Shown: piece after piece, positions 13,847 to 35,300 of the stretch
How positions within the stretch are numbered: position 1 is the first letter of the stretch
Layout of the letters: each line of letters begins with the position of its first letter
NCBI GenBank assembly: GCA_963575745.1
Contig: CAUYUJ010000298.1
Span: forward strand, 62,001-115,697
Direction: 5' to 3'
Length of the DNA: 53,697 nucleotides
Origin: Prorocentrum cordatum
Taxonomy: Eukaryota
The notes under the pieces: model-generated
What the model was told of the DNA's origin: nothing
The model's input: the letters and a program-made list of their open reading frames with translations, nothing else
The model's database searches: none
Made by a program: the position numbers and the translations under genes

Positions 13847-14416
13847 TCACCATAGCATCATTTCACGATGCAGGCGAAAACACTCACGCACGAAATCGAT
13901 TGAAATGTCTCTCCCATGACGCGAGACTGCGTTGCAAAATGATATCGTATACGCTGCACTCTCGTGGAGGTGTTTGCCCCCACTCACTCTCCCACTGGCC
14001 TCCTCCCAGAACTTCGCCTTGTTTGGATGATCTCTTTTCCACTGGCGCAAGTTCATGGTGCGAATCAACAAACAGGCGGTTGGCATGTTGGTCAGCAAAT
14101 GCGTGCACTTCGCCATGTCATGGCCAAAACAACCCATCCAAGTTGTGATCACCTTCAGTGTACCACTGCTCGCTGCAATCAAGTCCACCATGCTCGGGTG
14201 AGAGAACATCCAAGAGTTAGCTGGCTGCTCGACAATGACTGATGAGGCAACGTAAGAGTTAGGCGCACACAGGTTGCCAGAAGATCGTTTGTGCACAGAC
14301 GAAGGTGAATAATGAACAAGGTGGTCCTGCCGAGACAGAGTAGCAATATAAGGGACGTGGATCGAGCTGAGGACCTCTCTGGCTGGATTGTTCTGGTCCA
14401 AACGTGCGCCTGCCAA
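13847..14416 (-). pseudogene. Degenerate C5 cytosine DNA methyltransferase-like remnant
   Basis: IVEQPANSWMF resembles motif VI (ENP/EQP); TWMGCFGHDMAKCTHLLTN resembles the motif VIII region; GKHLHESAAYTISFC resembles the C-terminal motif. No PC catalytic dipeptide where expected (LVHYSP|SSVHKRS). Confidence 0.5.
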
Positions 14417-14901
14417 CTGGTGGTGGCCACATCATCGTCGGCGTGCCGGGCTTCTGCTCCGACTCCGACAGTTGAGCTCATCGACGGCGCTCTGAGGCTG
14501 GGCAGCGCTCGGAAGCTGTTCGTGCAACTGGGGGCTGTTTCAACCTCAGGGGCCCAAGAACCAGGACCCAAGGGCCCTAGGCCCAATGGAAGCAGGAGGA
14601 CCCAAGGAACCAGCTAGCAAGACAGACAGGAGAAGAGGGAGGAAGGGAAATCATATGGAGTTGAAACAAACAAGGCTTAGAACAACCGAAAGACAAGAGA
14701 AGGAATGAAAACTAAGAGGAGGAAGCCTTTCACGAAGCGAGTCTATGGAGTGAGGAGGCAGTGGTTCAACACCGTGGTAATCCCCCACGGCACACACACG
14801 CCCGGCATGACCCCCAGCACGACCCCCGACACCCCCCCTCCCCAATACACACACGCGAACCCCTAGGCGCCAGAAATATTGATGGCCATGCGGCCGTGCT
14901 C

Positions 14902-16410
14902 TATCTTTCTTTCTCGGTGTTTCCTCTCTCTCTCACTCTCTTTCTCTCCCTCTCTGAGGCAGTCGATTCACATGCGCTTCGCCACCACACTCTCGGACGC
15001 CAAAGGCCTCCACGGTAGCATCTGAGACCCCCCCAAAGCCCCAAGAGGATTCCATATGATAAGCGAGATGCGCGTTGTGGGGTCCTGGCAACGATTTGCA
15101 ACATCCGCTTCGGGGTGTAACAAACGGCATGTGATTGCCAAACTGCGCTCGCAACCGGCCCCAAGAGAACCCTTCAACAATTTTTCCAGCACATTGGCGA
15201 CGATGTCGTGTCAAATCTGCCCCGAACCTCCTTTCTGGGCCCTCCCGGGCCCCCCCTGCCCGCCGCTCAAATCCCTCTCTCACCAACCCCCGAAAACTGT
15301 CGTTTCAGATCTCAATAATGCCGCTACGGAAGGAGCGTCAATGTCTAGTCCCGATTTGGGAGCTGAAACTCAAGATCAGGCGGCACTGGCGCGTGCTGGT
15401 GAACATCTTTGGGCCCACCTCGGTCCACCTACTTCATGCCATGCAAAAAGGCCCACGCAACGCTTTGGTGTAGGGAACATGTGGAAAAACCTATCCAGTC
15501 GCACAACACTTGCATGTCGGCTACATTGCGGCCCCAGTCGTATCTTTCTTTCTCGGTGTCACTCTCTTTCTCTCCCTCTCTGAGGCAGTCGATTCACATG
15601 CGCTTCGCTCAATTCCTCTACTCTAAGTCGTTCGATTGTTCTCATCGGCATTTTTCTACTAAGGCCTCCACGGTAGCATCTGAGACCCCCCCAAAGCCCC
15701 AAGAGGATTCCATATGATAAGCGAGATGCGCGTTGTGGGGTCCTGGCAACGATTTGCAACATTATGGCGACATTTTGCTTCGGGGTGTAACAAACGGCAT
15801 GTGATTGCCAAACTGCGCTCCAAAATAGCCTCGCAACGCCAACACCAATCCTCACGATCCCCAAGACGGCCCCCCTCTGCCCCCAACCACCCCCCAAGAC
15901 CCCAAACCCCCCAAGAAGCCCCGCGACCGCCCCACGACATTTCCGCGACATTTCCGCGACATTTCCGCGACATTTACGCGACAATTCCGCGACAATTCCG
16001 CGACAATTCCGCGACAATTGGTGACGATGTCGTGTCAAATCTGCCCCGAACCTCCTTTCTGGGCCCTCCCGGGCCCCCCCTGCCCGCCCTTGCTCAAATC
16101 CCTCTCTCACCAACCCCCGACCGCCCGAAACTGTCGTTTCAGATCTCAATAATGCCGCTACGGGCGCAAGGCAGCGTCAATCCAGTCAATAGTCCCGATT
16201 TGGGAGCTGCTCCTCCCACTTAGCTACCAGATCAGGCGGCACTGGCGCGTGCTGGTGAACATCTTTGGGCCCACCTGGTGGGATGGCAGAGCCTACTTCA
16301 TGCCATGCAAAAAGGAAAGCCACGCAACGCTTTGGTGTAGGGAACATGTGGAAAAACCTATCCAGTCGACATCTTGCATGTCGGCTACATTGCGTGAGTG
16401 CTCGGGGTCG
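14902..16410. repeat. Imperfect tandem duplication (about 14902-15540 and 15541-16410) covering the 3' end of the transposase-like gene
   Basis: Both copies begin TATCTTTCTTTCTCGGTGT and share long blocks (e.g. AAGGCCTCCACGGTAGCATCTGAGACCCC; CACGCAACGCTTTGGTGTAGGGAACATGTGG). The first copy has many small deletions. Confidence 0.9.
15935..16020 (+). repeat. 11-bp minisatellite (CGACAWTTCCG), about 8 copies
   Basis: Directly visible. Confidence 0.9.
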
Positions 16411-19400
16411 CTGTGTTGTGTGAGAGAACCTATCGAAATGTACTGTGACCGACCTGCCATCAGGGAGAACTTGCGTAACAGGAATGCCTGCGAAATCTGG
16501 CTGGAGCGCAACTACTGACGGCATTGGTCCAAGCAACATGGGCATGCCTGGTGCGCCTGGGAGCGCGCCTGGCCCGACGGCATCGGCATCCATGATGGCT
16601 GCAGGGTCAGCTAATACATCAGGTGCCGTGCCCTTCAAGAGAGAAACAAAAAACTCATTTTTCTTTGAAGTGACATCGGGGCCTAATTCCTCGACCACTG
16701 TCAAATCTTCTAGCTCCAAGAGGCATACGAAATAATGATGCGGGCACTTGCTGTACATCGCAGAGAGCCCCTTCAAAAACACCCCTGCATAGAAACATAG
16801 CGCAGCGAGCCGTGCTTTAGACCCCATGACCCATCGTGCATCAATCTGTCGGATGGTATCGAGCGTGATGGTCTCTTCCGCCCAAACACCCAACCCGAAC
16901 GAAGCAAGTTGACTAGCAAATCAATTCGGGAAGCCTTGCCCCATGGTTCACATCGCGTCGGCCCAGCAGCGATTGTGCCAACGCAAGAATACGAATGCCT
17001 CAACACGACACCCAATCCAGCGGCATTCAACCTGTGAGTTGGGGGTCTTTCGACAATCGGGCCGTTTGGCTGGTTTTGCTGGGGCCCCCGGGGCCAGATG
17101 GCTCTAGGGACTCCAGCAACACCAGCTAGAGGAAGATGAGGAGGGGGAGGAGGAGAAGGATGAGGAGCAGGAGTGGAGGGTTGAGGAGGAGGAGGAGGAG
17201 GAGGAGGAAGGAGGAGGAGGAGAGGAGGAGGAGAGGAGGAGGAGGAGGAGGAGGAAGGAGAAAGAACCATATGATCTTGTTCAGTCGAGTTTGAAACATA
17301 CCAACGAGAAGGAAGATGAGTAGAAGGATGAGGAGGACGAGGAGGAGGAGGATGGTGTCTCTGGCCACGCCATCGGAAAGGGGGGGCGGATGATAAAGTC
17401 TTGGGTGGGTTGTCTACTCCTCCCTGATCTCCACCTCCTGCGAATACTGCTGTCCCTCCTCATCCTCCCCATCATGTTTCTGTCGTTATTTTGGATCAAG
17501 CCATGTTGGATCAAGCTCCCCCCTGACATTATCTAACCCCCTGGGCACTTGTACAATGTCTCGCCGAACTCATCCAGCTCGGTTGATATAGCATTTGACT
17601 CCACCAAATCTTGTAACTCTCTGATGTTGACATGGGGAATATCCATGAAACTGGCAACGCCGCCTCTGTCCACGATTGCGTCCACTATGCTCTGCTTGCG
17701 GTTTGCTAGCGCGAGCACTCCAGCGTCTGCGAGCATGTCTTCTGGGGGCGGAGCGATTGCAGGTGGCGGCAAAGGGTGTGAGAGCTGGGGCTGGGCACGT
17801 TTCTTCAAGACAACTTCTTTCATGGACGCACAGCTGTGGCATGTAACCCAAGACATAATATCTGCAACTACGCGCTGAAAAACTACAGGGTCGCTCCACA
17901 CCTTGAGTGACACCTTGGTTGACCCATCCTGCTTAAAACTTTAAGCGCACATCACGACCGTCTTGGACAACATTCATACCGATAACCTCGACGACCCCTG
18001 ACTGAGGAGCAATGTGGCACTGCTGCACCACTGTGTGGTCCTCTGGGTTTGGATTGACCACGTACAAGAATCGATGACCGTGTATTTCGGGTGCGTGAGG
18101 TGGCGGCGGCACTACAGCCACAGTCTCCACAACGGTCCTCACATCTGGATCTCCTGCCTCTGGGTCTGGAAGAACAGCCAAATCGTACAAAACATTGGGC
18201 ACACTGAAAACAGAACCTGCTGGGAAACGACTCTTCAACCAACCTACTACGATAGACTGGTTTGACGTCAATGGAAGGGCCCGCTTGATACGCTTGTCGT
18301 TTCGCATGTGTTCCCATTTGTCGTGGGCATCGGCCTCAGGACCCGCGTCAGGATGCAACGTGTCTACTCCGAAGCCATACGTCATCGCATATCGTTCTGA
18401 GTAAGTTCGAGGCAGCTTGGCATCGGGGCACAGAGGTTTTAGAAGAATGTCCCAAATGTATTTAGACCACATCAAACGGAAAAACTTATCCCCCTCCTCG
18501 TCGTCGAGCATGCTGATTGCATGCTGATGTCGCAAGTATGCGCAGATAGTAGCTGGCTTGAATCCAGATGCTGGGCCAGAGATCGCACTATGGACCTGAG
18601 AATGCAATTGCTCCACAGGTGTCTCGTCTTGCGCCGAGGCTGCAATTTCTTGAAACTCCACAAAGAGCATCGGAAAATCTTGGAGACTGGTGGCACCATC
18701 TGGAGCATTGGAATACACCTCGCACATGTGGCGCAAGCTGCTCCCCTGTTGCAAAATCCTGAGGCTCCGGGAGTGCTGGCGGTTGGGGTCCTAAGGGAAG
18801 AGGAAGTGTAGTGGTAGGCGTGCACCCAACCCCCCAATACGATAACCTCCCAGCCCCTGGGCTATCATGCTATCTACTTTGCTGTAGAGGTATACTAGGC
18901 AATCAAATGGCGTTGTACCTACGGCCCCCGCACGCACGCGTCGCTCAAACCTTGAACGCCAGAGATACGTATCACAACAAGGGCTCGCATGCATATACTA
19001 CGACAAGGGCCCTGGGGGGATCTCCGAGGTCAGAACACAACTACATGCAAACGCACTTGGGGCTACAAAGCAATGTGGATACAAAGCAACACAAAGCACC
19101 TTATCTTCACGCTTCGCGCTGTATGCGTTATCTTCGCGCCCTCGCGCTGACCGCAGGAAGAAGCGACCTCCTGGGCCAGACCGTGGCGCGCGAGGCTAGC
19201 AAGTCAAACAGACGTGGGGTTACAGCTATCGGGAGCAGCCCGGGTAGAATGCGCATTCGAGATGTGAACGCTCTCACTACTACACCCCAATCCCTGCATC
19301 CAACCAGGGTCCCACCATATTTTTTTCTTTATTGCTCCCTCCCTCCTCGATGGCATCAAATTCCCTCACGCAGTCTCTTAGGCACCCCTTGCTCTGCGCT

Positions 19401-21899
19401 TCGGACGCCCCCATGAATTGACCAAACACGCCAGCCAGACGCTGAGGAAGATGCTCATGGTAAGACATCTTGCCAGTTACAGTAGCTATGAGCCTGACCT
19501 CCACTCTCTCCTCGAAACTTTTCACTGCCTGGAAAGGCCCAATGGGAGTACGGACTAAGAAGTCTTGCAATGCCTCGCTCTGGACGCTGGATAACCGTTC
19601 GCAGATCTTGCGGCATTCCCCGAGCGCAAGCAATCCAGACCACCTGGGAGCGTGCAGTTTGAGTGCTAGGGCAAATCGCAGGGGGGGAGGGGCGGGCGCA
19701 TCAAACCACCATTGAACTACGCCCACCTTGAAACTCGCGCGACTCTGTAGCATCATTCGCCAATGCGCGCAAGATCCGAGGTGGCCGCAGTTACGTGATG
19801 GTTCCGACTGTGCCCCCCCCCCCAACACGTGCTATGTACGAAAGTGTTGCGCCGAGGACCTCCCCATCCAAAAACAACGCGCTGGCTTTTTTTCATCGGC
19901 AGCTGCGATGCCTCTCTTGCGCTACCGATGTTTCCCAGCTCTGGTCGCCGCAGGCCTCTTATCTAAATCGACGTCTGCGTGGCAAGGGCACGACGACAAC
20001 CTCCTCGTTTCCTTGCCTACGGCAGACGAGACGAGCAAGATCACGAGGGTCAATCCGAACCACGTGGAATCGGAACACACCTTCCTGAGATCTCGAGCCT
20101 CTTGCTCTGCGAAGACCCCCTCGTAAACCTGATGCAGAACAAAAAAAAACAAAAACATCGTTCCTCCTCGCCCTCCTGCTTCTTACCACCTGCTTCCTTT
20201 GCTCCCTCTCGCCCCCCCGTGCACCTCCTTTCCCGCACGCCAGTCCTCCACTCCTTGCGTCGTTGTTTCGCCCAGGCGAGGTCTAACAACACGAATGTTT
20301 GTTGGGGCTCGAAGTGCAATCGAAGATGTGCATGCTAATGGACCCCTCTCCCCCTCGCGCCAATGACCCCACATGCAACTTTGGATAGGGTGTGCCTACC
20401 CCTCGTGCAGTGCCTGTTGGAAGTCAGTGCTGTCCCTTGGCTGGTAGGACTGAGAGTGAGAGAGAGGAGGAATGAGCACGACGGAGAGGGGGGAGAATTG
20501 AGAGAGATTGAGAGGACAAAGGAGGAGGAGAAATGAGACAGGAAGGCTTGCGTGCGCATTATAAAAGGACGCATGCCTGAATATCCCAGTACCTCACAAA
20601 GATTGGGTGCGCCAGCACCACCCAGCACAGCAAGTCCTCAACGAATTCCCATTTCCAATCTAAGAAGGATTGCTTGATTTTGTTCACGGTGTCTATCTCT
20701 ATCTTCGGAGCGCCTCTCATGCATCGGCCAACGAAACGAGTTCGGTATTCTGATTTGCCAAGCAAGCCCAATAGAGTATTGAGCGCAGCCTTCCAGTCAT
20801 CGTACTCGGGCTGCTTCACCACAGACTCCTTCAACGCATTGAAAAATATGTGTTTGTGTCCGATGTGCTCAATTGCGTCTGGAAGGAACTGCACGTCCCG
20901 GGAGGCAGGATCATTAAACGATATCTCTCCTGATTCTAACTTGTTGATCGCATCGAGGAGGCTTCCGTTCTCAGAATACAGGAGCGGCGCTGTGCATATC
21001 TTTCGTTCGGTACCCTGATCGGAGAGAAAACCAGAAACTTGGCACCTCCACTCTGGGAAGAGATCGCCGCTCTCGAGTGCCGCTGCGAACATTAACTTGC
21101 AAGTTTTGTTGACGGTTGCTGAGTCCCTGCTGCCCAGACAACTGACTGGTAGCATCCGCCGCTCCCACCGAAAACCGCCAAGCGGGTCGTCGCGCTTGAG
21201 GGGCTCCATCAAGTCCCGCTCCATGACAACCTCGTGGGCCATGAAGTAGTCGTAGCCTCCTTGGGGGCTGCTGTCGATGGTAATGTATCGAGAGATGCGC
21301 ACGTCACGCCCTTTCTCAAGTAGCTTCCTCCTCCACAGCATCAAGATAACATCTGATCGAACGAAGTTTCTGGCAGTAGTAACCCTGTGTGGAACGCGCA
21401 TCGCTCCCTCATCGATCTCCTTGGCGATCGTATCGGCCGCGGGACGGCCGAGGAGTGCCCTGGCACAGATCTTAAAAGCATCCTTGGCACGATCAGGGTT
21501 TCGAAGCAGGCGATGAAGTTGCATGCAAGCGATCATCGTGTCCACTGTATACTTCCCCCTGTCAGTCATGTACGATGCTTCGTCATCCTCATCATCATCC
21601 TCAACGGCTGGGGCGGCCTCTCCCTGGAGGCTTGCCTCCTCCTGCTCTGGCAACTCAGCTGCAACATCACCAGCGGCGCTCCCTGGTCCGAGACCTTCGG
21701 CAAGCCTGTGCTCTAGGTGAGCACCCGCCTTCGCAGGGCACTGCCTGTTGCACCCCGCAGCGCATATCCCTTGCCCCATGTCAGGAGCTCGCTTGATGCA
21801 CTGGGGATCGTGCCCGAAAGGATTGCTCAGATTTTCGCTCGAAGATTCCAGGCTGCATCCACGTGCGTACGAGGCCGCACGGCTACGGGGGTGGAACAC
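16186..21899 (-). pseudogene. Multi-exon DDE transposase-like gene (hAT/P/MULE-type RNase H fold), disrupted
   Basis: Predicted in-phase exons: ?-20577, 20128-19860, 19643-19346, 18790-17549, 17031-16186, with GC, GT, GA and GT donors and AG|G acceptors. Motifs YITIDSSPQ (D1), FLSDQGTE (D2), GHKH, CPCH, ETPVEQLHS (E) and a C-terminal C-x2-H-x2-C...H. TAG at 19922-19924; single-base frameshifts near 17935 and 16883. 5' end uncertain. Confidence 0.65.
17128..17352 (+). repeat. (GAG)n purine-rich tract in predicted transposase intron
   Basis: Directly visible. Confidence 0.9.
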
Positions 21900-21966
21900 C
21901 GGGCCCCAGGGACTAGAAAACTATGGGGCTATGCGCGGTAGCGGGGTGCAAGAGGGGTGCCCATCC

Positions 21967-22656
21967 CTAGCAGTTCGCCAGTGGAATGCTGGCCTGCAGC
22001 CCCAAGAATCTCACGTGGAACTCTGGCGCGACGATGACGGCGCCAGCAACCAGTTCGCGGGGAAGAACAGTGTGAGGCAATATCCACAGACGTCCCAAGC
22101 CTGCCCTAGCGCTGACGCCCTCCCCCGGCGACGACAACAGCTCGTGGACAGTTTGGCCAAGCATGTGCCCAGCAGGGTCTGGTGTGGCCATTACGCCAGT
22201 AAGTGCATGCCAAACGTGCCCAGAGATCTTCTGCACTCCAAGAATGTTCTGGCCATCGCGGATGAACCCATTCAGCGCATCTCCTGAAAGAGTTAGTGGC
22301 GGATTCAACATAAAAACATCACGCAGTTCGATAGCAATGTATTTCCGAGCGTTGGCAGAAGCTTTGGCATGAGGCTTGGCCCCACAAACCGAAAACCACG
22401 ATTGCCAAGCTCCTTGCTGACGTTGTTCTTCCTCCGTGGTGCCAACTGGCCTCTCTGGGCACAACGCCACGACGGCCTGGACAATGCGATCGCACTTGCG
22501 AGAAAAAGTCGGGTCGAAACGGTTAACGCCATCGTCAGGCTTCAGCGATACAAGCAAAATGTGGCCGTGCTTACGGCGCCGATCGGGGCGGCGAGGGGGG
22601 CCTCCACTGGGAGCGGCCCCGCTGCCGATCTGCGGTCTGACCGCAGGAGGAAGCAT
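21967..22656 (-). CDS. Possible first exon of the transposase-like gene, or a separate 229-aa hypothetical ORF
   Basis: ATG-initiated ORF immediately upstream on the same strand, protein-like composition; splice join not established. Confidence 0.35.
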   Translation of the reverse strand: MLPPAVRPQIGSGAAPSGGPPRRPDRRRKHGHILLVSLKPDDGVNRFDPTFSRKCDRIVQAVVALCPERPVGTTEEEQRQQGAWQSWFSVCGAKPHAKASANARKYIAIELRDVFMLNPPLTLSGDALNGFIRDGQNILGVQKISGHVWHALTGVMATPDPAGHMLGQTVHELLSSPGEGVSARAGLGRLWILPHTVLPRELVAGAVIVAPEFHVRFLGLQASIPLANC

Positions 22657-25600
22657 GCTTGCGCCAAAATGGCTGAGGCCCCGAGGAACGGCCAGGTCAG
22701 GGTGGAGGGTGGAGGGATAGAAAAGTCCGCTGACCCCATTCGGGGTTTCAAGGCTCGCGGTCCAGCTCCTGAGCAGGTCGTTTTTTATCTTTATTGCAAG
22801 GTCATGGGCCCCTGCCCCCGATATGCTTACGGGTCGTCGTGGGCAACTTCAAAAAAACATTGTCGGCATCATCCCCTGGAACAAACGTTGGAAGATCACT
22901 GCGATGATCTGAAATGTTTGCACAGTGCCTTTTGCCCCTGCCCGATGCGCCTCAAACGCGACAGCGCAGTGGGGGGTGGTCATCGCAGCCCCCCCTTAAC
23001 GTCAGAATTGAAGCGAACGAAAGCGCGCCCATCGTGCGGTGCTAAAGCTCGGTTAACGTATACGTGTTCGGCCGTGTTCATATTTTACACCAGATGTTGC
23101 GACCGTGCGAACGACGGATGGGGGCGGATCAGGCGACCCTAGGTTTTGGATTAGTTAGCGGGTTTCAATGGGGGTCATCCAACGTGCACGCGTTTAACCT
23201 TTGGTTTGGTGGATGTGTCTTGGTGTTTAAATTGCGCCGCACTTGAAGCTGCAAGGATATGGACGGGGTGTGAAGTCCACGTGCCCTTTCGGACGGTGTG
23301 TGGCCACCATCGATCATGCATTTTTTGAAAATTCAACATATTGTAACGCTTGTTTGGGGGGGAGAAATTTCGAACCATTCCAAGTTTTGCCTACCGATGA
23401 TGTTTGTCGGATTGTGGTCAGAAGTGGCTAAGTACTTCGAACCAAGTTCTGTTTCGTTAGCCTGCATGCGAACTTGCGATTTCGTCTTGCTGCCACCCCC
23501 GCTCTGGTGCCGTTTTGGCACGCGCAAAAAATTCGAGTCGACCTTCCGATGCCGCCAATCTAACGGCGGCCCGTCTGTGCCGCGCCGTCGATCCTCGACT
23601 TCTCCTCGACTTTGAGCGGACGCAGGGTCTAGTCGTGCACTCCCTTACTCGAAACCGCCGATCCCGCCCGTGTGCTTTTTAGCAGTAAAAGATACCCGAT
23701 CGAGCTGAGATCAAGATGGTCAGCAGAAATAAGATCAAATATCACGGGAATAAATACAAGATCTCAAACGAATTGAGGAATTCCGAGAACAAAATTTTCA
23801 ACCGACCAAATGTGAGCAAAAGGTCCGTCGAGATTTTTCTTGCCAACTAGCTCTCCAGCGCGCCAGAATTATTGGGCGCCGGCGGTAAACCGTCAACCTT
23901 CGTTACCGCCGGGGGACTCGTAGAGCTTCCTGACAACATATAATGTCGAAAAAAAATTACACTGAAAAAATAGTTTTTCAGCCCAAGCAATTTCAGACCT
24001 CTCCGATGTAACAGCCGAACGCCCCCGATGCTTCTGGATTCTCTTCTGTACGAGCTCTGTAGCTCTCCTACAGCCCGAGTTACGTGCGTAAATCGACAGC
24101 ACCTCTCAAGATTACTCGAATAATACGAATAGTTTCGCAAACCTAGCTCGAGTATCAGACCGAGTTCAGACCTCTGCATGCGACAGGCAGACGCGTCTGA
24201 TGTCTCTGAATCGATTCCTGTGATTACCAGCCCTGCAGCCCCCCCTACAGCCCGAGTTAAGTTCAGGAAACCGACAGCACCTCTCAGGATGACTCGAACA
24301 ATACGAATAGTTTCGCGGAGCTAGTTCGGGCAGCAGACAGAGTTCGAAGCTCTGGATTCGAAAGGCGGACGCACCTGATGTCTCCGAATCGATGCCAGTG
24401 ATTACCAGCCATGCAGCCCCCCCACAGCCCGAGTTGAGTGCAGAGAACCGACAGTATCTCTCAAGATGACTCGAATAATACGAATAGTTTTGCGGACCTA
24501 GCTCGGGCAGCACACCGAGTTCAGAGCTCTGGATTCAACAGACAACGGCCACTGATGATTCTGAATCAGATTCTGTACGTATCAGCTCTGAAGCTGTCCT
24601 GTAGCTCGAGTTAAATACAGAAAGCCGAGAGCGCCTGTCAAGATGACCCGAATACTACGAATAGGTTTGCGGACCTAGCTCGGCTAGCAGACCAAGTTCA
24701 GACCTCTGGGTTCAACAGGCGAACGCGGCTGATCATTCTGACACCGATTAGCTGTGCTTACCAGCTCTGTAGCTGTCCTAAAGCTCGAGTTACCTTGAGA
24801 AAACCGGCAGCGCGTGACAAGATGACCCGAAACGGCCGATCCCGCCTGGACGCTTTTTGGCAGTAAAACGTACCCGATCGAGCTGAGATCAAGATGGCGA
24901 GCGGGAATAAGATCGAATATCACGGGGAAAAATAACAGAGGTCTAACGAATTGTTGAATTTCGAGAACGAAATTTTCAACCGAGCAAAAGTTGTCAAAAA
25001 TGGGCGCCGGCGGTAAACCGTCAACCTTCGTTACCGCCGGGGGAATCGTAGAGCTTCCTGACAACATATAATGTCGAAAAAAATGCTGAAAAAAATATTT
25101 CTTTCAGCCCAAGCAATTTCAGACCTCTCCGATGTAACAGCCCAACGCCCCCGATGCTTCTGGATTGTCTTCTGTACGAGCTCTGTAGCTCTCCTACCGC
25201 CCGATTTACGCGCGTAAATCGACAGCACCTCTCAAGATGACTCGAACAATACGAATAGTTTCGCAAACCTAGCTCGAGTATCAGACCGAGTTCAGACCTC
25301 TCCATGCGACAGGCGGACGCGTCTGATGTCTCTGAATCGATTCCTGTGATTAACAGCCCTGCAGCCCCCCTACAGCCCGAGTTAAGTGCAGGAAACCGAA
25401 GCACCTCTGAGGATGACTCGAACAATACGAAAAGCTTCCTGGCAAAAGTCGTCAAAACGTCCGTCGAGATTTTCCTTGCCAACTAGCTCTCCAGCGCCCC
25501 GGAACTGGGAGCCGGCGGTAAAGCTTATGACAGTTATAATGTTGAAACAAAATTGCAGAGACCCACTAGTTTTTCAGCCCAAGCGATTTCAGACCTCTCG

Positions 25601-26345
25601 ATGCAACAGCCTAACGCCCCCGATGCTTCTGGACTGTCTTCTGCACGAGCTCTGTAGCTCCCCTACAGCCCGAAATACGCGCGTAAAACGACAGCACCTC
25701 TCAAGATGACTCGAAGAATACGAATAGTTTCGCAAAACTAGCTATCAGAAAACTGCCAGCACCTCTCACGATCACTCGAACAATACGAATAGTTACGCAA
25801 ACATAGTTCGGACAGCAGACCGAATTCGGAGCTCTGGATTCGACAGGCGGACGCGTCTGATGTTTCAGAATCGATGCCTGTGACTACCAGCATTGTAGCC
25901 CCCCTACAGCCCGAATAAAGTAGAATCAAGATGACTCGAAAGGGCCGATCCCGCCGGAATGCTTTTTGGCAGTAAAAGGTACCCGATAGAGCTGAGATCA
26001 AGATGGCGAGCGGGAATAAGATCGAATATGACGGGAAAAAATACTAGAGCTCTAACGAATAGTGAAATTTCGAGAACAAAATGTTCAACCAACGAAAAGT
26101 CACCAAAAGCTCCGTCGAGATTTTTCTTGCCAATGGCGCCGGCGGTGAACCGTCAACCTAGTCACCGCCGGGAACCTCGTAGAGCTCCTTGCATCCGTAA
26201 GAGAGCTCAGCATCAAAGCGAGAGCTCCTGGGAGCTTTTCTGCGAAAACTTGAAGTTAAGAATTTTCGGAGTTAACATGAAGTCGGTTCCTCCAAGTGAA
26301 CTGGTACTAAAAATGATTCTAGAAGGCTGAGCTGCTCAGGGAACA

Positions 26346-26631
26346 ACTTGGTAGCGTCGAAAACCCGGAGAGCGAAGAGACCGTCAGAAGGGGGAAATCT
26401 TTCCTCGAGAGCGCTGGGGGCCTCCCCTGCAGCGCTGTCGAAGTGCTGCCAGGAACGCTTCGACACGTGCCTGCACGCGTGGAGGCACACGTGGCAGCGC
26501 CACCGAACCCGCTGCCGGCTCGCCGGAGCTTCTGCGAGGCCTGTGGACCGCCGTGAAGGAGCTCCTGGCGGGCACCACCACCGTCAGGCTTCTAATCTTA
26601 AACCCTTTAGCTCTCAGCGAGCTCTCCGGGA
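26346..26631 (-). mobile_element. 286-bp GC-rich non-autonomous element with asymmetric inverted repeats (family D, one copy here)
   Basis: CCCGGAGAGC (26364-26373) / GCTCTCCGGG (26621-26630); flanks rejoin GAACA|AAGTT of a B element, no TSD. Confidence 0.7.
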
Positions 26632-26708
26632 AAGTTAATATGTCAATGCTCGAGGTAAAAATCTGCTTTCTCAAAATGAATTGTCAAACTGGCGCCGGCG
26701 GTGAATCG

Positions 26709-29700
26709 TCAACCAGGTTTGTTTGTTTGGACTCGCGTTCCCAGCTGAGTGCAGCTGGGCGAGGACCGGTCCCGCAGAAGCACACGGGCAGCGCTGAGCA
26801 GCGCTCCGGCTGCCGACAATTCACATTCTGTGACTGTAGCTCCTTCGAGGAGCCACGCGGCCTCGGCCACATCCCTCCAAACGAGGGGCACGGCACTAGA
26901 AACAGCAAACTCATGCCCAGCAGGGAAGGGGCCCACGGTTCTCGCGGAAGCGATGCCTATCTCACTGGGATTGCACTGAGTATTGATTAAGCCGATCTGA
27001 AGCCAGAAACCACATCCTGATCCTTGCTGGTCAACCCCGCCATCAAAGCCTCCCCTGATAGCGAACGGTAAGAGATAAGTTTCGAATGGATATAGATAAC
27101 AATGAGTTCTGTAGAATGTGCGGCCACATCTGGCCTCATGCGTCAATTCATCCGCTCGTGTATTGTCCTCCCTGAATTCGTGTCTCCATATCTCACGTCC
27201 CAAGGCAGCAGGCCTCAGATTGAAACACGCAGCGAGCTCAAAGGTACAATCAATCATGGCAGCTGTCCTCTTGCAGTAGCCACGATTCTCACATCTCCAT
27301 TTCCCCTGTAGCCAGGAGCAGATAAGTAATGAGTCACCCTTGAACTCAGCAGCAAAACCCTCTGAGGATATATCCCACACAGTCGCACGTTCCTGGATCA
27401 TAGCATAACGTATTGCAAGCTTGGCGGACTCTTTGGGGTCGTACTTGGGGTGCAGAGGGTTGGTCGCGATGTCGACCGCCTCAGCGTCGGCCTTCTCTCG
27501 AGCCTCAGGGGAGCCTCGAGGTCCATTAGGAGAGCCCTTCCAAGACACCACAAAGTAATCATAGACCTTAGTTTTGTTGTATTGTGTAAGGAGTTGCTTC
27601 CATACCTCCAAGAACTGAACCCAATCGCCCCGTACCGACTCCCACCACTTTTCCCCAAAGAACTGAATGTAGGGGAACTGCCAAGACCGACCGCCCACAG
27701 ACACAGGGCCTCCACGAAGCCGCTTGCCCGAACTAGATAAGGCCCTGTTGCCGCGTTGTCGTAGAACCTCTGTTATTGTGTCGCGAGCCGTGACCCAGCC
27801 AACATTGTACATCATAAGCGCACGTCGGGAGTCTCGAAAGGCCCTCCTCCCCTTTGAGACGGCAAGTGGCTCGTCTCTGAGAGTGTGGGCAGCTCCCTCT
27901 CCAGAGGGCATCGGCTGTGAGCGGGCAATGGAACAGGCGACCTGCGAGCAAAGATCCTCCAGCCGCCTCTCCATATCCGTAATCCTCCCCTCCACCTCCA
28001 TCACAGTCGCTGCAGGTACATCCTCCCCCCGTCCATCCGCAAAGCGAACACGTTTAGCACGTTGAGTCGTTGATCCCTCCACCTCAACCTCCGTCCTTGC
28101 CGCCCTGTCCTCCTCCAAAGATAGTAAATATTGCCTCGTGGAGCGCATCATGCCCCAGCTCTTCCAACACAGCATCTGCACAGCCGACGGGAAACCCCCA
28201 TCGCAGAAGATTGTCCTGACTCGTGTCAGTGCAGCTGGCCGCCATACCTCCCACCCCACATCTCCTGGCTTCCTCCTCCCTGACATTCTCAGAAGACACA
28301 TACCCTCGAACGCATGGATAACCCTCACACACTCACTGTCAATCGTGATGGCCTCTGCTGCATATAAAAGACGGCTCTGCACAGTCGATTGATATCGACG
28401 AAACTTCTTCACCAGAGGCAGCGCCCTGCACGTAAAATACTGCACCTGCGCAAAGAATGCCCTTCGGGCCTGCTGGACGCGCTCCTGCACATCCGTGTGG
28501 ATAGAAGTGAAACTTCTGGGAATCTGATACCCCAGCACATTCAAACTCTCAACATGCTTGAAAGGAACAATCCGCGAGCCAATCTGAACCGTGACCGTAT
28601 CAGTGTACTGAGTACCACACACCATCATCTCTAGACTCTCCTCCTTCCACTCCATCCCCCAATCCCTGAGAGCAGTAGTGAAGGCAGTGGCCGCTACCTG
28701 CGCCTCCGATGCTGACTTGGCGGCCAGAAAAATATTGTCAGCCCAGAGAGCATGATTCCAACGTGCATACCGACAATGATCATCATGGCATGGCATCTCG
28801 ACTCCGACACCGCGCTGATCCAGGCGAGCAATCACATCACGCCACATAGCAATAGTGACAATAGTAAACGCGATAGGTGATTCGGTACCCCCAGTACGGA
28901 GCGACCTATCCCACTGCACATTGGGGATTGTCACTCCTTCAAACAGCACCGTGCATGAAGTAGATGAGAGAGGCTCCAATAACGCATACTGTAACCGTGC
29001 ACTGATCCCAAGGGCCGTCATCGCTCTCGAGACTGTCGGCAACGTCACAGCATCGAACGCCCGCTCGATGTCACAGCTGAGGAGCCACGCCGTTTGATCT
29101 CGCCCCCATGTGGAAGCATGTTGTGCAATACATTTCATGGCCGATGAAATCTCCCAGCAACGTCGTCCGCTGGTAAAACCGTAAACCGCCATATCACTCA
29201 TGAAGGGTTCCACACATCGTTCCAGTAAAATCGTCACACACGCGAGATACCACTTGGCCAAGGTATTTCCGACGAGCAGGTTCCTTGTTTGTCGCAATGT
29301 TTCCAGTTTGCTCGTTGTCGGCATAAGTGTTAGGTATACTTCCTGCCATTCCCTTGGCGTCGGGCGAAGCCCGTTGAATATATCAGAGAAAACCTTACCA
29401 ATAGAACGCACTGACCTCCACGAAAGAGACTTGAGAAGTTCAACCGAGATGCCGTCGGGCCCACAGGCCCGTCCTGTTCGGAGCCTGCTCCGCGCCTGCA
29501 GGATAGTAGAGTATGCAATCGTAAGTGTGTTGTCCGAAGAGGCTGTTGATTGAGATGCATGGCGACGCAGTGTGGACACAAGCTCCCGATTGCGGGCTCT
29601 GGAGTCATCACGAGTCATACTCTGCACAGCATATCGCTCCACCTCCTCCGCCCACAGTTCCCTGTCCTCCGTCATCATAGTCGTAGGTCCCATATCCCCT

Positions 29701-30986
29701 CCCCCAGTGTCCGTCACCCTCAACTCCGTCACACGTGTCCTCCTCCCCTTCCTAGATGGTAGCGCCTCCCACTCCACATTCCGTCGGCGATATTCCCGCG
29801 CAAGCGGTCTGATGCGACGTCGAAGGCCCCGAGCCAACGCTCTGTCCTTCCTAGCACGTGCCTCTCTGAGTTGTACCTCCAGCTCGGCATGCTGAGGAGT
29901 CCTACTCGGCGGGAGCCCTCGAGAGTACCTGGGGGCCCTCACCGTGAGGAGCGGTAACGCATGTCCAGCAATCGTTTCAGCAAGACGTTGTGGGGGCACC
30001 GTCGGGATCTGGACGTCCGCCAGGACCTGAAATTGGGCCTCCTCCCGATACGATTGGAACTCTTTGTGGCTTGTGTGGTGGCTAGGGGGGCCTTGATATT
30101 TCGTGACCTGAGGGTTCTGCATATGGAACTCGGCGTAGACACAGGCATGATCCGAGAAGTTGGTAGTCGGGGTCTCTGGGATCCAATCCGTTCGGCATTC
30201 AACCAAGTCACCCTCCCAGGATTGTGGGACCATGAGATAGTCAAGCACTTTTGGCGCAATAGTCTTCGCCCCAGACTTGCGTCGAGCATTATTCGCACGA
30301 TGCACGAAAGTCGGCTGCCGAGAGTACGGCGAGCCAAGAGAATTGACTGCCAGCAAGCGCATCCGACACAGCCACTCCTGCAGCTGAGATCGCCACATGT
30401 CCTCCTCCCACCGTCTATCCTCCGTATCATTCCCATATCCCCTCCCGTCGAGAATCTGCACAGCACCTCCAGTCACCGTGCCTCCTGAACAGGTGATGTC
30501 GGGCGCAAGCTCAACATTAAAATCCCCTGCAATCACAAGCTCACATGTGTATCTGCATTCCTCCTTCCACCTCCGATAAGTTGTTTCGATTGTTTTCAGC
30601 ATCTCAAAAGCCACCTCCAATGAACGATTCTCCGATCTGTTCGGAAAATACGCAGAGACAAGAAAGATACACGGATGACGCAAGCACACAATAGCAAGAC
30701 GAGCATGATTACTCCAAGAGCGAACTATGTTGTGACAAGACTTCCCCCTCAAAGCTATGGAAGCCTTCCTGTCACTTGAATAAACTAGGTGCCAGCCAAG
30801 CAGCTGAATTGAATTGGACGGTAAGTGTTCACACTCCTGTAAACAGAACACTTCACAGCCGCGAGAAAGAAGTGCCCTCATGCAAGCAAATCCCCGATCT
30901 GCTGTAGCCCCTTGTTTCATAAGATTCTGGGTGCCTAGCCTATGCTGGGCTGTGGGGCCACCAGCCCGACTGGCACCTCTGCACCG
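26709..30986 (-). CDS. ORF2: AP-type endonuclease, reverse transcriptase and RNase H-like domain
   Basis: APE motifs GTQN, CLQE, AGDFN, LDY, SDH; RT motifs GPDG, YGF, DIERAFD, TGGTESP, WADN, LG; RNase H motifs GDS, HxxRExNxxAD, FDGG, TxxExE. First ATG at 30920 but the frame is open from 30986. Confidence 0.93.
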   Translation of the reverse strand, partial: RCRGASRAGGPTAQHRLGTQNLMKQGATADRGFACMRALLSRGCEVFCLQECEHLPSNSIQLLGWHLVYSSDRKASIALRGKSCHNIVRSWSNHARLAIVCLRHPCIFLVSAYFPNRSENRSLEVAFEMLKTIETTYRRWKEECRYTCELVIAGDFNVELAPDITCSGGTVTGGAVQILDGRGYGNDTEDRRWEEDMWRSQLQEWLCRMRLLAVNSLGSPYSRQPTFVHRANNARRKSGAKTIAPKVLDYLMVPQSWEGDLVECRTDWIPETPTTNFSDHACVYAEFHMQNPQVTKYQGPPSHHTSHKEFQSYREEAQFQVLADVQIPTVPPQRLAETIAGHALPLLTVRAPRYSRGLPPSRTPQHAELEVQLREARARKDRALARGLRRRIRPLAREYRRRNVEWEALPSRKGRRTRVTELRVTDTGGGDMGPTTMMTEDRELWAEEVERYAVQSMTRDDSRARNRELVSTLRRHASQSTASSDNTLTIAYSTILQARSRLRTGRACGPDGISVELLKSLSWRSVRSIGKVFSDIFNGLRPTPREWQEVYLTLMPTTSKLETLRQTRNLLVGNTLAKWYLACVTILLERCVEPFMSDMAVYGFTSGRRCWEISSAMKCIAQHASTWGRDQTAWLLSCDIERAFDAVTLPTVSRAMTALGISARLQYALLEPLSSTSCTVLFEGVTIPNVQWDRSLRTGGTESPIAFTIVTIAMWRDVIARLDQRGVGVEMPCHDDHCRYARWNHALWADNIFLAAKSASEAQVAATAFTTALRDWGMEWKEESLEMMVCGTQYTDTVTVQIGSRIVPFKHVESLNVLGYQIPRSFTSIHTDVQERVQQARRAFFAQVQYFTCRALPLVKKFRRYQSTVQSRLLYAAEAITIDSECVRVIHAFEGMCLLRMSGRRKPGDVGWEVWRPAALTRVRTIFCDGGFPSAVQMLCWKSWGMMRSTRQYLLSLEEDRAARTEVEVEGSTTQRAKRVRFADGRGEDVPAATVMEVEGRITDMERRLEDLCSQVACSIARSQPMPSGEGAAHTLRDEPLAVSKGRRAFRDSRRALMMYNVGWVTARDTITEVLRQRGNRALSSSGKRLRGGPVSVGGRSWQFPYIQFFGEKWWESVRGDWVQFLEVWKQLLTQYNKTKVYDYFVVSWKGSPNGPRGSPEAREKADAEAVDIATNPLHPKYDPKESAKLAIRYAMIQERATVWDISSEGFAAEFKGDSLLICSWLQGKWRCENRGYCKRTAAMIDCTFELAACFNLRPAALGREIWRHEFREDNTRADELTHEARCGRTFYRTHCYLYPFETYLLPFAIRGGFDGGVDQQGSGCGFWLQIGLINTQCNPSEIGIASARTVGPFPAGHEFAVSSAVPLVWRDVAEAAWLLEGATVTECELSAAGALLSAARVLLRDRSSPSCTQLGTRVQTNKPG

Positions 30987-30989
30987 TCA
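30930..30989 (-). promoter_or_regulatory. Candidate stop-codon readthrough cassette (UGA-CGG, 9-nt spacer, stem-loop)
   Basis: Minus strand: TGA CGGTGCAGA GGTGCC-AGTC-GGGCTG-GTGGCCCCA-CAGCCC-AGCATA-GGCT-A-GGCACC; ORF1 and ORF2 are in the same frame. Confidence 0.6.
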
Positions 30990-32303
30990 CACCCTGCCGG
31001 CAAGACTCGTAACAAATGTGTCGTATGTAGTCGTCACACCGCTTCGCATAAGTACACCCTCCCAGATCTCGCGGTCCACTGTCCACCCCGTATTGATACG
31101 AAAGGATGCCAGTTCCACGGGTCGATGCTGAGGGTCCTGCGGCTTGGTCCACATTGTGCTCCGTCCGTTGGGTCCCGATCCTGTCTCCCCCCTGATCTCC
31201 ATAGCCTCACTGTTGGTACACTCGCGGTATGTCCCATAGAAGCGTCCCACAGCCCCGATATGATCACGTTTCCAAGGTGGGGCCTCTATGCGTACGCGGA
31301 CCCGACTGGGTCGTTGTAACATGCCCTGGAACATGCTGTCATAATCTGGAGGTGACCTCGAAACCTGAGCCGCATTCCTTTGGGGATTCGGAGTTAAAGC
31401 ATCATCAAAAGCACGCTTCACGTTGTATAATCTCGAAGAGTCGGTTCCTACAATGAATTTGATTTTGATCGTACTCAACATCATTCTACTTCCATTCATA
31501 CGTAATGTGCCCTCGTAGTCGATCCTAGCTTCATCCTCTGCTGCGATGGCCGTCTTCAAATTAGTGATGAATTGTGCAGCGTCCGTGTCTCTCATCATAC
31601 TGGCCGAACGTGTAACCGCTGTCCCATTCCAGTCTGTCCAGCCTGTGAGCTCCACATAGCTGGGACTGAAACTGGAGGGTCCTGAGAGTCCTGGTGGGCC
31701 CCCTCCGTAGGAAGGTGCCGTAGTCGAGGCTGCACCTGATATCACACTGGGGTTCTTCTTGAGATCCTGCATCTGTCGTTCCAAATTGTTCATCCTGATG
31801 TCGGAGGCCTCCTGACGCTTCGAGATACTCTGAATATCGGCCCTGGTTTCGACGTTTTCTTGTTGCCTAACTTTGCTCTCAAGCACGTTGAGCTCCGCGA
31901 AGGCCTTGAACCAGGATGGGGCCTCGTCCGAGACCACACTGAGTTTCTTTCGCTTCTCCTCGAGTTCTCCCAAGAGTGCCTCGTGAGGACCGTTGACACG
32001 ATGTTTGACATTTCGTTGGGCGTCGTCGCTAACACCCTGCATACCCTGACGCTCCCCAGCACCTTCAGGGACAACAGCCGCTTGGGCCGCCGCCTGTTGT
32101 GCCTCCGTGGGCATACCTGGGGGTCCCCCTAGAGCACCTTGTGGAGCTGGGCCTCTAGGAACAACAGGAGCGCCTCCAGATCCTTGACCTCCAGGACTGA
32201 CCTGACCTATTGGAACCCCTCCCGCACGCCCTCCGTTGGTTGTAGCTCCCGCCACAGCTGCGTTGGAATAAGTCTGCATCATATTCATGAGTCCTGTATT
32301 CAT
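30987..32303 (-). CDS. ORF1 (gag-like/RNA-binding) of the LINE
   Basis: G/P/Q-rich N-terminus, heptad-like coiled coil (IQSISKRQEASDIRMNNLERQMQDLKK), then a globular region. First ATG at 32303, but the frame is open to the element 5' end. Confidence 0.8.
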   Translation of the reverse strand: MNTGLMNMMQTYSNAAVAGATTNGGRAGGVPIGQVSPGGQGSGGAPVVPRGPAPQGALGGPPGMPTEAQQAAAQAAVVPEGAGERQGMQGVSDDAQRNVKHRVNGPHEALLGELEEKRKKLSVVSDEAPSWFKAFAELNVLESKVRQQENVETRADIQSISKRQEASDIRMNNLERQMQDLKKNPSVISGAASTTAPSYGGGPPGLSGPSSFSPSYVELTGWTDWNGTAVTRSASMMRDTDAAQFITNLKTAIAAEDEARIDYEGTLRMNGSRMMLSTIKIKFIVGTDSSRLYNVKRAFDDALTPNPQRNAAQVSRSPPDYDSMFQGMLQRPSRVRVRIEAPPWKRDHIGAVGRFYGTYRECTNSEAMEIRGETGSGPNGRSTMWTKPQDPQHRPVELASFRINTGWTVDREIWEGVLMRSGVTTTYDTFVTSLAGRV

Positions 32304-35300
32304 ATTCACAAATGAAGGTGGGACAACACAATGGCTATCACTATCTGGTGTGGAGTCGGCAGTATTCAATCTCCCGTCCAATGGAAGGTCACGTACAATC
32401 TGCTCGGTATCCTGAACTTGCCTCTTCCGAGATGCCCTCTCAACAGCAGAATCTGGTCTCTGTCCGTAATCCTGTGAGTACTGCAAATATGGTACAGTCG
32501 GGGAAATATCACTGAAAAGTCGTGCCCGTCCGTCTTTGCACACACGACAAACAAAACAACAATTACAGCACACAAAGCAGGCGGCCTGGCTTGCCTGGAA
32601 GATGCCGTACTCGTCGATGGCAGCGATGGCCGCCGCGCCGCTTCCCCGCGGCGCCGACACCCCCTGAGCTCCTGTGGGATCCAGGAGCCCTAGAGCCGAG
32701 ATGTCTTGAGCCGGGAACCTCGTAGAGCTCCTTGTATCCGTGAGAAAGCTCAGGATCAAAGCAAGAGCTTTTGGGAGCTTTTCTACAAAAACTTCAAGTT
32801 TAGATTTTTCAGAGTCAACATGAAGTCGGTTCCTCCAAGTGAACTGGCACTAAAAATGGCTCTAGAGGACTGAGCTGCTCAGGAAACAAAGTTTATTTAT
32901 ATGTCAATGCTCGGAGTAAAAATCTGCTTTCTCAAAATGAATTGTCAAATATCCTTCAATTTTTTGCAACATCACCCAAAAGTTACCACTTTGTCCTTTC
33001 TGGCCGGGTCGACCAACTAGCTCCACCCCGCGCCGGAATTCCTCTAGCTCATCGATGCCGAAGAGCTCTACGAGGTATATCTTTCAAAAAATCGCAAAAC
33101 CATCCAAAAGTTGTCCCATTCTCCGCCTCAGCCGGGTGCGCCAACTGGCGCCGGCGGTGAACGGTCAACCTGGTCACCGCCGGGAACCTCGTAGAGCTCC
33201 TAGCACGCGTAAGAGTGCTCAGCATCAAAAGAGAGGGCTTCTGGAAGCATTTCTCAAAAAAAGAGAAAACCTGATTTTTTTATGTCGACATGAAGTTGGT
33301 TGCGCCAAGTGTTTTGATAGTAAAAGTGAATCTAGAGAGCTCACATTAAGACGGAGAGGCCCTCATAGTCGTTCACAGGTGCGAAAAATCTGCTTTCTCA
33401 AAATAAATGGTCAAATATCTTTGAAATATTTGCAAAACCACCCAAAAGTTATCACACTGGGCGCCGGCGGTAAACCGTCAACCTTTCTTACCGCCGGGGG
33501 ACTCGTAGAGCTTCCTGAGAATATATAAGGTTTCCAGACCTCTCGGATGCAACAGCCGAACGCCCCCGATACTTCTGGATTGTCTTCTGTACGAGCTCTC
33601 TAGCTCTCCTACAGCCCGAGTTACGTGCGCAAATTGACAGCACCTCTCATGATGACTCGAACAATACGAAGAGTTTGGCAAACATAGCTCGAGTATCAGA
33701 CCGAGGTCAGACCTCTGCATGCGACAGGCGGACGTGTCTGATGTCTCTGAATCGATTCCTGTGATTAACAGCCCTGCAGCCCCCCCTATAGCCTCAGTTA
33801 AGTGCAGAAAACCGACAGCATCTCTCAGGATTCGAACAACACGAATAGTTTTACGGACCTAGTTCGGGCAGCAGACAGAGTTCGGAGCTCTGGATTCGAA
33901 AGGCGGACGCGCCTGATGTCTCCGGATCGATTCCAGTCTCGACCAGCCACGCAGCCCCCCCACAGTCCGAGTTAAGTGCAGAGAACCGACAGCATCTCTC
34001 CAGATGACTCGAACAATACAAATAGTTTCGGGATTCTAGATCGGGCAGCAGACCGAGTTCAGAGCTCTGGATTCAACAGACAACGGCCACTGATAAATCT
34101 GAACCAGATCCTGTACGTATGAGCTCTTTAGCTGTCCTGTAGCTCGAGTTAAGTACAGAAAACCGAGAGCGTCTGTCAAGATGACTCGAATAATACGAAT
34201 AGGTTTGCGCACCTAGCTCGGCTAGCAGACCGATTTCAGACTTCTGGATTCAACACGCGAACGCGCCTGATCATTCTGAGTGGATTAGCTGTGCTTACCA
34301 GCTCTGTAGCTGTCCTGAAGCTCGAGTTATCTTGAGAAAACCGACACCGCGTGACAAGATGACTCGAAATGGCCGATCCCGCCGAAGCGCTTTTTGGCAG
34401 TAAAAGGTACCCGATCGAGCTGAGATCAAGATGGCGAGCGGGAATAAGATCGAATATCACGGAAAGAAATATTAGAGCTCTAACGAATTGTTGAATTTCA
34501 AGCACAAAATTTTCAACCGACCAAAAGTCAGCAAAAGGTCGGTCGATACTTTTCTTGCCAACTGGGCGCCGGTAAATGTCAACCTTTGTTACCGCCGGGG
34601 ACTCGTAGAGCTTCCTGACAACATGTAATGTCGAAAAAAAAACACAGAAAAAATAGTTTTCAGCCCAAGCAGACCTCTCGGATGCAACAGCCGAACGCCC
34701 CCGATGCTTCTGGATTGTCTTCTGCACGAGCTCTGTAGCTCTCTTACAGCCCGAGTTACGTGCGTCAATCGAGAGCACCCATTGGCAAACCTCGCTCGAG
34801 TATCAGACCGAGTTCAGACCTCTGCATACGCGTCTGATATCAGCTAAGTGCAGGAAACCCACAGCACCTCTCAGATTATATTGAACAATACAATAGTTTT
34901 ACGGACTTAGTTCGGACAGCAGACAGAGTTCGAAGCTCTGGATTCGACAGACAGACGCGCCTGATGTCTCCGAATCGATTCCAGTGATTACCAGCCATGC
35001 AGCCCCCCTACAGCCCAAGTTTAGTGAAGAGAACCGACAGCATATCTCAGGATGACTCGAACAATACGAATAGTTTCGCGATAGATCGGGCAGCAGACCA
35101 AGTTCAGAGCTCTGGATTCGACAGACAAACGCAACTGATAATTCTGAATCAGATTCTGCACGTATTGGCTCTGGAGCTGTCCTCAGGCTCGAGTTGAGAA
35201 CAGAAACTGAGAGCGTCTGTTAAGATGAATCGAGTAATACGAATAGGTTTACGGACCTAGCTCGGCTAGCAGACCGAGTTCAGACGTCTTGCTTCAACAG

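Follow-up and report, generated by a model that had tools for sequence, protein, structure and literature searches.

A very probable circular permutant of archaeal-type RNase H at the C terminus of a dinoflagellate LINE ORF2

Can the two halves of an RNase H domain exchange places along the chain and still make up one RNase H? This question is raised by a non-long terminal repeat retrotransposon (long interspersed nuclear element, LINE) on the minus strand of a 53,697-nucleotide stretch of DNA from the dinoflagellate Prorocentrum cordatum (contig CAUYUJ010000298.1, positions 62,001 to 115,697; hereafter the window). The second open reading frame (ORF) of this element, ORF2, ends in a region that a first-pass annotation, made from the letters alone, took for an intact, naturally permuted RNase H. 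The analysis supports that idea in three ways: homology to RNase H is found in crossed register at the profile level, five active-site positions are conserved, and the order of the halves is uniform in the family. In our view, ORF2 very likely ends in a naturally occurring circular permutant, ~210 residues long, of an archaeal-type RNase H (type 1, Pfam RVT_3-like).

The region was examined as P0001, the C-terminal 263 residues of ORF2 (translation of 26709-27500, minus strand). In one frame, GDSLLICSWLQGKW (27297-27338) is followed by HEFREDNTRADELT (27141-27182), after which come FDGGVDQQGSGCG (27009-27047) and TVTECELSAA (26808-26837). All four motifs listed in the first-pass annotation were thus recovered where it had placed them, in swapped order and within a single ORF of 1403 residues. 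The four acidic residues and the histidine that it had noted are also present, and their columns are kept across a 50-sequence alignment of the family (A1). The putative catalytic codons are divided between the two halves: half A, corresponding to the canonical C-terminal half, carries GDS (Asp, 27333-27335), His (27180-27182), and N..AD (Asp, 27150-27152), and half B, corresponding to the canonical N-terminal half, carries FDGG (Asp, 27042-27044) and T.T.CEL (Glu, 26820-26822). Alignment columns identify the conserved glutamate as the second Glu of TECEL, E227 of P0001. A regular-expression scan in six frames across the full window (107,394 residues) returned H..RE.N..AD and T.T.[AC]E[LYM] once each, FDG[GAS] twice, and GD[SN]..[LVIAM] three times; only at the C terminus of ORF2, within ~175 codons, do all four patterns occur together.

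The swapped order is not peculiar to this copy. An exhaustive phmmer search with the C-terminal 263 residues returned 127 homologues with E ≤ 1e-3, and for 50 of these E was ≤ 1e-10. Hidden Markov models (HMMs) of half A (the GDS-to-AD part) and half B (the FDGG-to-AEL part), which derive from this same family and so test order, not homology, were scanned on ORF2 and the 127 homologues. In ORF2 they match residues 1181-1264 (E 3.3e-30) and 1285-1384 (E 3.5e-24), respectively. Half A precedes half B in 90 of the 128 sequences; another 29 have half A only, 8 have half B only, and 1 has a split half A, the single-half sequences being short fragments. The arrangements B-A, A-B-A, and B-A-B occur in none of the 128, and the comparison of homologues suggested in the first-pass annotation therefore returned no two-half order besides A-then-B. 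Neither the window nor any of the 90 two-half sequences shows the canonical succession β1-β2-β3-αA-β4-αB/D-β5-αE. In 89 two-half homologues the halves are separated by 0-36 residues (median 21), and the C-terminal arrangement is kept in full-length ORF2s that are 19-40% identical to the ORF2 of the window. The swapped arrangement is fixed in a family of LINEs with a putative apurinic/apyrimidinic endonuclease (APE) and a reverse transcriptase; members of the family come from at least one dinoflagellate and from many contigs of aquatic metagenomes.

The same counts bear on a different origin of the pattern, which the first-pass annotation had itself named as the finding that would overturn it: the two halves could be leftovers of two tandem normal RNase H domains, the C-terminal half of the first and the N-terminal half of the second, and not one domain. 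Such an ancestor is plausible, as textbooks derive permutants from a duplication that is then truncated, and the assembly of the halves in three dimensions is a prediction from models. Those models, however, place both halves in one globule, with predicted template modeling (pTM) scores of 0.80 and 0.86. With a uniform family order that contains no N-then-C or three-half sequence among 128, and with 87 of the 89 two-half homologues ending no more than 71 residues after half B, the explanation by tandem remnants is unsupported. When the sequence before half A was compared by profile with half B or αA, no relic of a further domain emerged (probabilities ≤0.8%). Neither half by itself would hold a complete active site, and still every catalytic column is conserved. 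We regard leftovers of two domains as very improbable. One of the full-length homologues, the P. cordatum protein P0109 (CAK0872238.1; 1660 residues), runs 378 residues past half B; the extension might reflect fused gene models or be an additional domain at the C terminus.

The order of the halves is not an assembly artefact either, because the A-B junction is crossed by contigs of separate, independent public runs: a contig of run X3 (1717 nucleotides) spans 26779-27700 and one of run X6 spans 27004-27251. Near-identical sequence was found in runs of 14 studies, mostly aquatic metagenomes, and no RNA run was among them.

Homology to a known enzyme was sought with the A1 profile. Against all PDB sequences, it matched at E<0.01 solely archaeal-type RNase HI: 4e19_A (1.5e-7), 3u3g_D (6.4e-7), 3aly and 2ehg (~1e-5), 4h8k (2.1e-5), and 3hst (6.7e-3). 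On 4e19 the matched stretches cross, with profile positions 128-198 falling on chain residues 67-129, 38-65 on 134-161, and 92-113 on 177-198; half A (profile 36-113) aligns to 70-137 of 3u3g and 134-198 of 4e19. Pfam RVT_3 matches 30 of the 50 A1 members at E ≤ 1. Of 20 members taken singly, 16 match RVT_3; in 14 of them the strongest stretch pairs half A with profile positions ~56-123, and in 2 (P0091 and P0073) it pairs half B with positions 2-57. In a further member, P0117, half B is matched by PF00075 positions 6-56. The neighbours found by features in the Atlas are RNase_H and RVT_3 clusters (scores 0.90-0.91).

A comparison with Escherichia coli RNase HI gives the same crossed picture. 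In hhalign, residues 65-143 of the E. coli family alignment are covered by half A (E 0.0035) and residues 4-60 by half B (E 0.0082), and the family columns coincide with D70, H124, N130, and D134 in half A and with D10 and E48 in half B. The resulting pairings are D56 with D70, H107 with H124, D117 with D134, D153 with D10, and E227 with E48, where the E. coli numbers are those we take to be the accepted ones; they agree with the alignments. The single E. coli sequence aligned to A1 in a sensible but not significant manner (probability 0.46%, E 0.13). As judged by these comparisons, both halves are homologous to RNase H, each occurs once, and their order is swapped, which is what defines a natural circular permutant.

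It could be asked whether the motifs simply co-occur by chance, or through faulty assembly, in a region unrelated to RNase H. The window protein matches no family in single-sequence searches, as this explanation would have it, but profile E values go down to 1.5e-7 against solved RNase HI enzymes, RVT_3 is found in 30 of 50 members, and the 127 homologues and the independent contigs across the junction speak against both chance and artefact. The motifs go beyond chance because of the profile statistics together with their conservation in the homologues, and the probability that we leave to this explanation is close to nil.

In structure prediction, the permuted order gives a compact domain. 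AlphaFold2 with A1 yielded a model of the window domain with a mean predicted local distance difference test score (pLDDT) of 85.3 and a pTM of 0.80. The elements of the model are H22-37, E49-55, H58-65, H73-93, E105-107, and H114-124, followed by E143-157, E160-173, E207-217, and H223-246; apart from an extra N-terminal helix, their order corresponds to β4, αB, αD, β5, and αE and then β1, β2, β3, and αA, each once. A model of the homologue P0086, which is ~29% identical and has no insertion in the β2-β3 hairpin, shows the same element order with a pLDDT of 90.7 and a pTM of 0.86. Because of these pTM values, the two halves are confidently placed together in one globule. When solved structures were searched with sequential aligners, the RNase HI chains were the only matches with sequence identity as high as 20-31%; with VIA-align, half A matches them at Z 3.6-4.0 and 20-27% identity. 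That both halves form one RNase H fold is a strong inference from these results.

In addition to the family origin of the half HMMs mentioned above, a number of results weigh against this reading. The halves had been proposed for separate HMM searches at the outset, and here the outcome is divided: the family profile matches RNase HI in crossed register, whereas the window protein alone, as ORF2, as its C-terminal 263 residues, or as each half, matches no RNase H family in Pfam. A phmmer search of the PDB with P0001 gave no match, and the RVT_3 gathering score is reached by only 2 of the 20 members taken singly. Half B is the less certain of the two. On 4e19 its stretch reaches 10.4 bits, and the independent E value across the entire PDB is 2.4; of 14 fragments rich in half B, none matches RVT_3 or RNase_H; and a 13-sequence half-B profile found no RNase H in the PDB, its sole match being spurious (E 0.52). 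Support for the homology of half B by itself is modest. The 10.4-bit match would still be informative, because half A had already picked the chain and the effective search space is a handful of chains. Matches of P0086 to half B in Gordonia phage sequence (tblastn, E 0.5-2) were set aside as spurious, the phage protein being no RNase H by Pfam or hhalign. The hhalign probabilities of the E. coli placements are low, 9.3% for half A and 4.9% for half B, which we attribute to a shallow E. coli profile (120 listed relatives, all ≥79% identical) and to the greater distance of the family.

The structure searches add to this side of the balance. The RNase HI chains match half A only (model residues 39-130; Z 3.6-4.1, 75-82 residues), and the sequential aligners gave no full-length RNase H match, as is expected of a permutant. 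Matches that cover both halves align 103-121 residues to unrelated single-domain α/β proteins at Z ~5, and the top rank in Foldseek is held by PelC-type lipoproteins (E 9e-5, TM about 0.2-0.42, root-mean-square deviation 11-14 Å). We take the PelC, RlmH, CinA, and HPF-type matches (Z ~5, TM 0.2-0.4) to be look-alikes in element order.

How might a permuted RNase H be built and used? We predict that the chain opens at β4 (GDS, the Asp70 equivalent) and continues through αB/αD, β5 (the His124 equivalent), and αE (N..AD, the Asp134 equivalent); that a linker of ~20 residues spans the old C and N termini; and that the chain closes with β1 (FDGG, the Asp10 equivalent), β2, β3, and αA (AEL, the Glu48 equivalent). 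A chain that runs from β4 to αE first and ends at αA has its new termini in the former αA-β4 loop, a loop that in the RNase H fold sits at a distance from the active site. As the D-E-D-D set, the His, and the Asn are retained and the cut falls in this loop, the permuted domain would be expected to work by the ordinary two-metal chemistry of RNase H. Its substrate would then be the RNA:cDNA hybrid that arises in target-primed reverse transcription; degradation of the RNA strand would make the first-strand cDNA available for synthesis of the second strand. The same release of the first strand has been proposed for other LINEs that bear an RNase H. What would differ is the point at which the nuclease is tethered to the reverse transcriptase and the rest of ORF2, which would have moved from β1 to β4; that this shift matters for the coupling to the polymerase is speculation on our part.

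Whether the domain is still a nuclease can be judged from its conserved columns. Among non-gap residues in A1, D56 is found in 42 of 42 sequences, D117 and D153 in 50 of 50, E227 in 47 of 48, N113 in 50 of 50, and H107 in 46 of 50, and the same catalytic residues are invariant in seven full-length ORF2s. One could picture a true permuted RNase H homologue that no longer acts as a hybrid-specific nuclease and serves as a structural or nucleic acid-binding module or as a nuclease for another substrate. The subfamily of the window carries a disordered insertion of ~33 residues in the β2-β3 hairpin, His107 is replaced by Trp in 4 of the 50 sequences, and human LINE-1 ORF2p, the best solved relative of the reverse transcriptase, works without an RNase H of its own. 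In the face of these points, the carboxylates and N113 are held as counted above down to ~20% identity, a pattern that we would expect only under selection on catalysis. Loss of the nuclease is thus an unlikely alternative, and we think it reasonably probable, on the strength of the conserved residues, that the permuted domain is catalytically active. The insertion has a pLDDT of ~50 at residues 180-200 and is missing from most A1 members. In three of four public runs, contigs skip 103-104 nucleotides at 26888-26994, a stretch that overlaps the insertion.

The permutant probably arose by partial duplication followed by loss. Because the domain ends ~10 codons before the 3′ end of the LINE, a partial 3′ duplication would be an easy route. 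No intermediate or relic of such a duplication was found among the 128 family sequences or in the upstream profile comparison.

The features of the domain, of the element that carries it, and of the flanking reading frame are collected in Table 1.

Table 1. Coordinates of the putative permuted RNase H domain and of the LINE in the window
Feature	Position	Strand	Basis
Whole putative permuted RNase H domain (P0001 40-250, ORF2 ~1180-1390)	26751..27383	-	half-HMMs; AlphaFold pLDDT 90-98 over elements
Half A, canonical C-terminal half (β4, αB, αD, β5, αE)	27129..27356	-	profile, RVT_3, structure alignment
Linker from old C terminus (αE) to old N terminus (β1), with short extra strand	27075..27128	-	predicted secondary structure
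Half B, canonical N-terminal half (β1, β2, β3, αA)	26763..27074	-	profile, RVT_3/PF00075, hhalign
Insertion of ~33 residues in β2-β3 hairpin, specific to subfamily of the window, predicted disordered	26883..26981	-	pLDDT, alignment
ORF2, 1403 residues: endonuclease-like N terminus, reverse transcriptase, C-terminal putative permuted RNase H	26709..30920	-	ORF list, Pfam
Reverse transcriptase core (ORF2 residues 567-800)	28521..29222	-	Pfam RVT_1, 48.6 bits vs cut-off 29.6
ORF1, 590 residues as listed, TTG start	30987..32759	-	ORF list; 5′ junction of LINE at 32710
Non-LTR (LINE) retrotransposon copy, ~5.99 kb	26719..32710	-	BLAST of both flanks vs uninterrupted repeat copy
(CAAA)3 at LINE 3′ end	26718..26729	-	sequence and flank junction near 26718

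ORF2 is the ORF2 of a non-LTR retrotransposon, because it contains an RVT_1 domain (Pfam, E 1.1e-12) and its best solved relative is human LINE-1 ORF2p. The latter is matched at E 3e-7 by the single sequence and at E 4e-13 by a profile of seven full-length homologues, positions 240-685 of which align to chain residues 222-687; R2 proteins are the next-best solved relatives. The N terminus of the window ORF2 has no Pfam endonuclease match. The homologue P0146 matches Exo_endo_phos weakly (E 0.001), and the ORF2 translation contains GDFN- and SDH-like motifs, which we take to be endonuclease motifs. A word-index search with ORF2 residues 1-1000 gave no match, and one with the C-terminal region gave P0002 only. 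For ORF1 no Pfam family was found; its first half is rich in Gly, Ala, Pro, and Gln, and its first in-frame Met lies roughly 150 codons in. The true start of ORF1 should be further inside than listed, because the first ~16 listed codons fall outside the LINE.

The limits of the LINE were set by its flanks, which match an uninterrupted repeat copy elsewhere in the window (BLAST; 26688-26718 with 50723-50753 and 32711-33024 with 50759-51068). The element splits a satellite-derived repeat unit of ~270-340 bp that is related to a 177-bp satellite, and a tblastn search found a single ORF1/ORF2 copy within the window. Comparison of the flanks with 50723-51068 showed no target-site duplication at the junctions, and ~5 nucleotides of the reference repeat unit are unaccounted for. 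ORF2 has no stop codon inside the LINE: (CAAA)3 is read through as QTNK, and the stop lies 8 nucleotides beyond, in the flanking repeat. Close homologues part from the window protein at about this read-through point. At 26600-26747 the summed contig depth is ~5-70 times that of the body of ORF2 in four of four runs, and many contigs have only 26657-26688 in common; a short, very high-copy sequence thus adjoins the 3′ end of the LINE.

Most of the window is filled by blocks of the 177-bp tandem repeat (1-9900, 23600-26700, and 32700-53697). The copies match one another at 73-90% and are grouped with other repeat pieces into larger recurring units, and some blocks are inverted (e.g. 48725-49253). 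The block at ~9850-23150 stands apart, with a GC content of 0.54-0.59 compared with 0.48-0.50, and contains ten ORFs of 201-547 residues, mostly on the minus strand. None of the ten matches a Pfam family, and the largest (11843-13486) has no usable Atlas neighbour. This block may be another inserted element of unknown kind.

In our literature searches, no paper described a retrotransposon with a permuted RNase H. The word "permuted" in PMC13524379 and PMC10830420 refers to label shuffling and to a reverse transcriptase thumb, respectively, both unrelated to a permuted RNase H. The closest precedent is the CIRPIN structure screen of AFDB clusters (PNAS 2026; PMC13552848, Fig. 5D; 10.1101/2025.11.18.689110), which in the passages available to us presents a permuted pair of ribonuclease H-like domains, its authors knowing of no earlier case of ribonuclease permutation besides T2/BECR (PMC13552848). 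Like the window domain, that pair, as described in those passages, is a natural circular permutation in an RNase H-like fold that was found computationally. The same passages name no protein, organism, cut site, or retrotransposon context for the pair; RNase H-like is a very broad superfamily, and some overlap with the family of the window is possible. Apparently, a permuted LINE RNase H is a variation on a textbook fold that has yet to be described.

Few folds have been studied as thoroughly as RNase H, in protein folding as in retroelement biology, and retroelement history has been reconstructed with the help of its acquisitions by retrotransposons. A permuted and apparently functional RNase H would be a natural experiment on how chain connectivity relates to folding and catalysis, and the permuted order would be a clean synapomorphy of one LINE lineage that may help to follow the history of retroelements in dinoflagellates, whose genomes abound in retroposed sequence. 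Such LINEs are currently annotated as lacking an RNase H, because Pfam and collinear searches of sequence and structure miss the domain in the window protein. If the domain is active, the point at which RNase H is tethered to the reverse transcriptase would be unconstrained in target-primed reverse transcription, and a changed tether would alter the way in which the RNA:cDNA hybrid, on leaving the polymerase, meets the nuclease site. The most far-reaching version of our proposal is that this is the first described natural permutant of a type-1 RNase H, active, fixed in a whole dinoflagellate LINE lineage, with a changed presentation of the hybrid and maybe an origin by 3′ duplication; as a whole, we consider that version an even bet.

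The closest enzymes to the C-terminal domain of ORF2 are the archaeal-type RNases HI (PF13456) of Halobacterium NRC-1 (4e19) and Sulfolobus tokodaii (2ehg and 3aly), LC11-RNase H1 (3u3g and 4h8k), and the N-terminal domain of Mycobacterium tuberculosis Rv2228c (3hst). The domain shares with them FDG(G/S), T..AE(L/Y), GDS, and H..RE.N..AD, the D-E-D-D set and His, and the same set of secondary structure elements. Unlike these enzymes, the window domain has β4-αE first and β1-αA last, with a linker of ~20 residues between the old termini, and it is embedded at the very C terminus of a LINE ORF2.

In its location, the domain is like the RNase H of the I, Tad1, LOA, Ingi, and R1 clades and the archaeal-like RNase H (aRNH) of plant L1 elements, which also lie C-terminal to the reverse transcriptase in an APE-type ORF2, and with which it presumably shares the removal of the RNA template after first-strand synthesis. 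The LINE RNase H domains, including the plant L1 aRNH, were reportedly described by Malik and Eickbush in 2001 and by Smyshlyaev and colleagues in 2013 and are said to have the canonical order. As with the window domain, the nearest cellular relatives of plant L1 aRNH are archaeal-type enzymes. Unlike those LINE domains of canonical order, the family of the window is permuted in every two-half member scanned. Human LINE-1 ORF2p (8c8j, 8uw3, and 9k6g), the best solved relative of the reverse transcriptase and of the upstream part of the window ORF2, has no RNase H domain at all, whereas the window ORF2 adds what is very likely a permuted RNase H at its C terminus.

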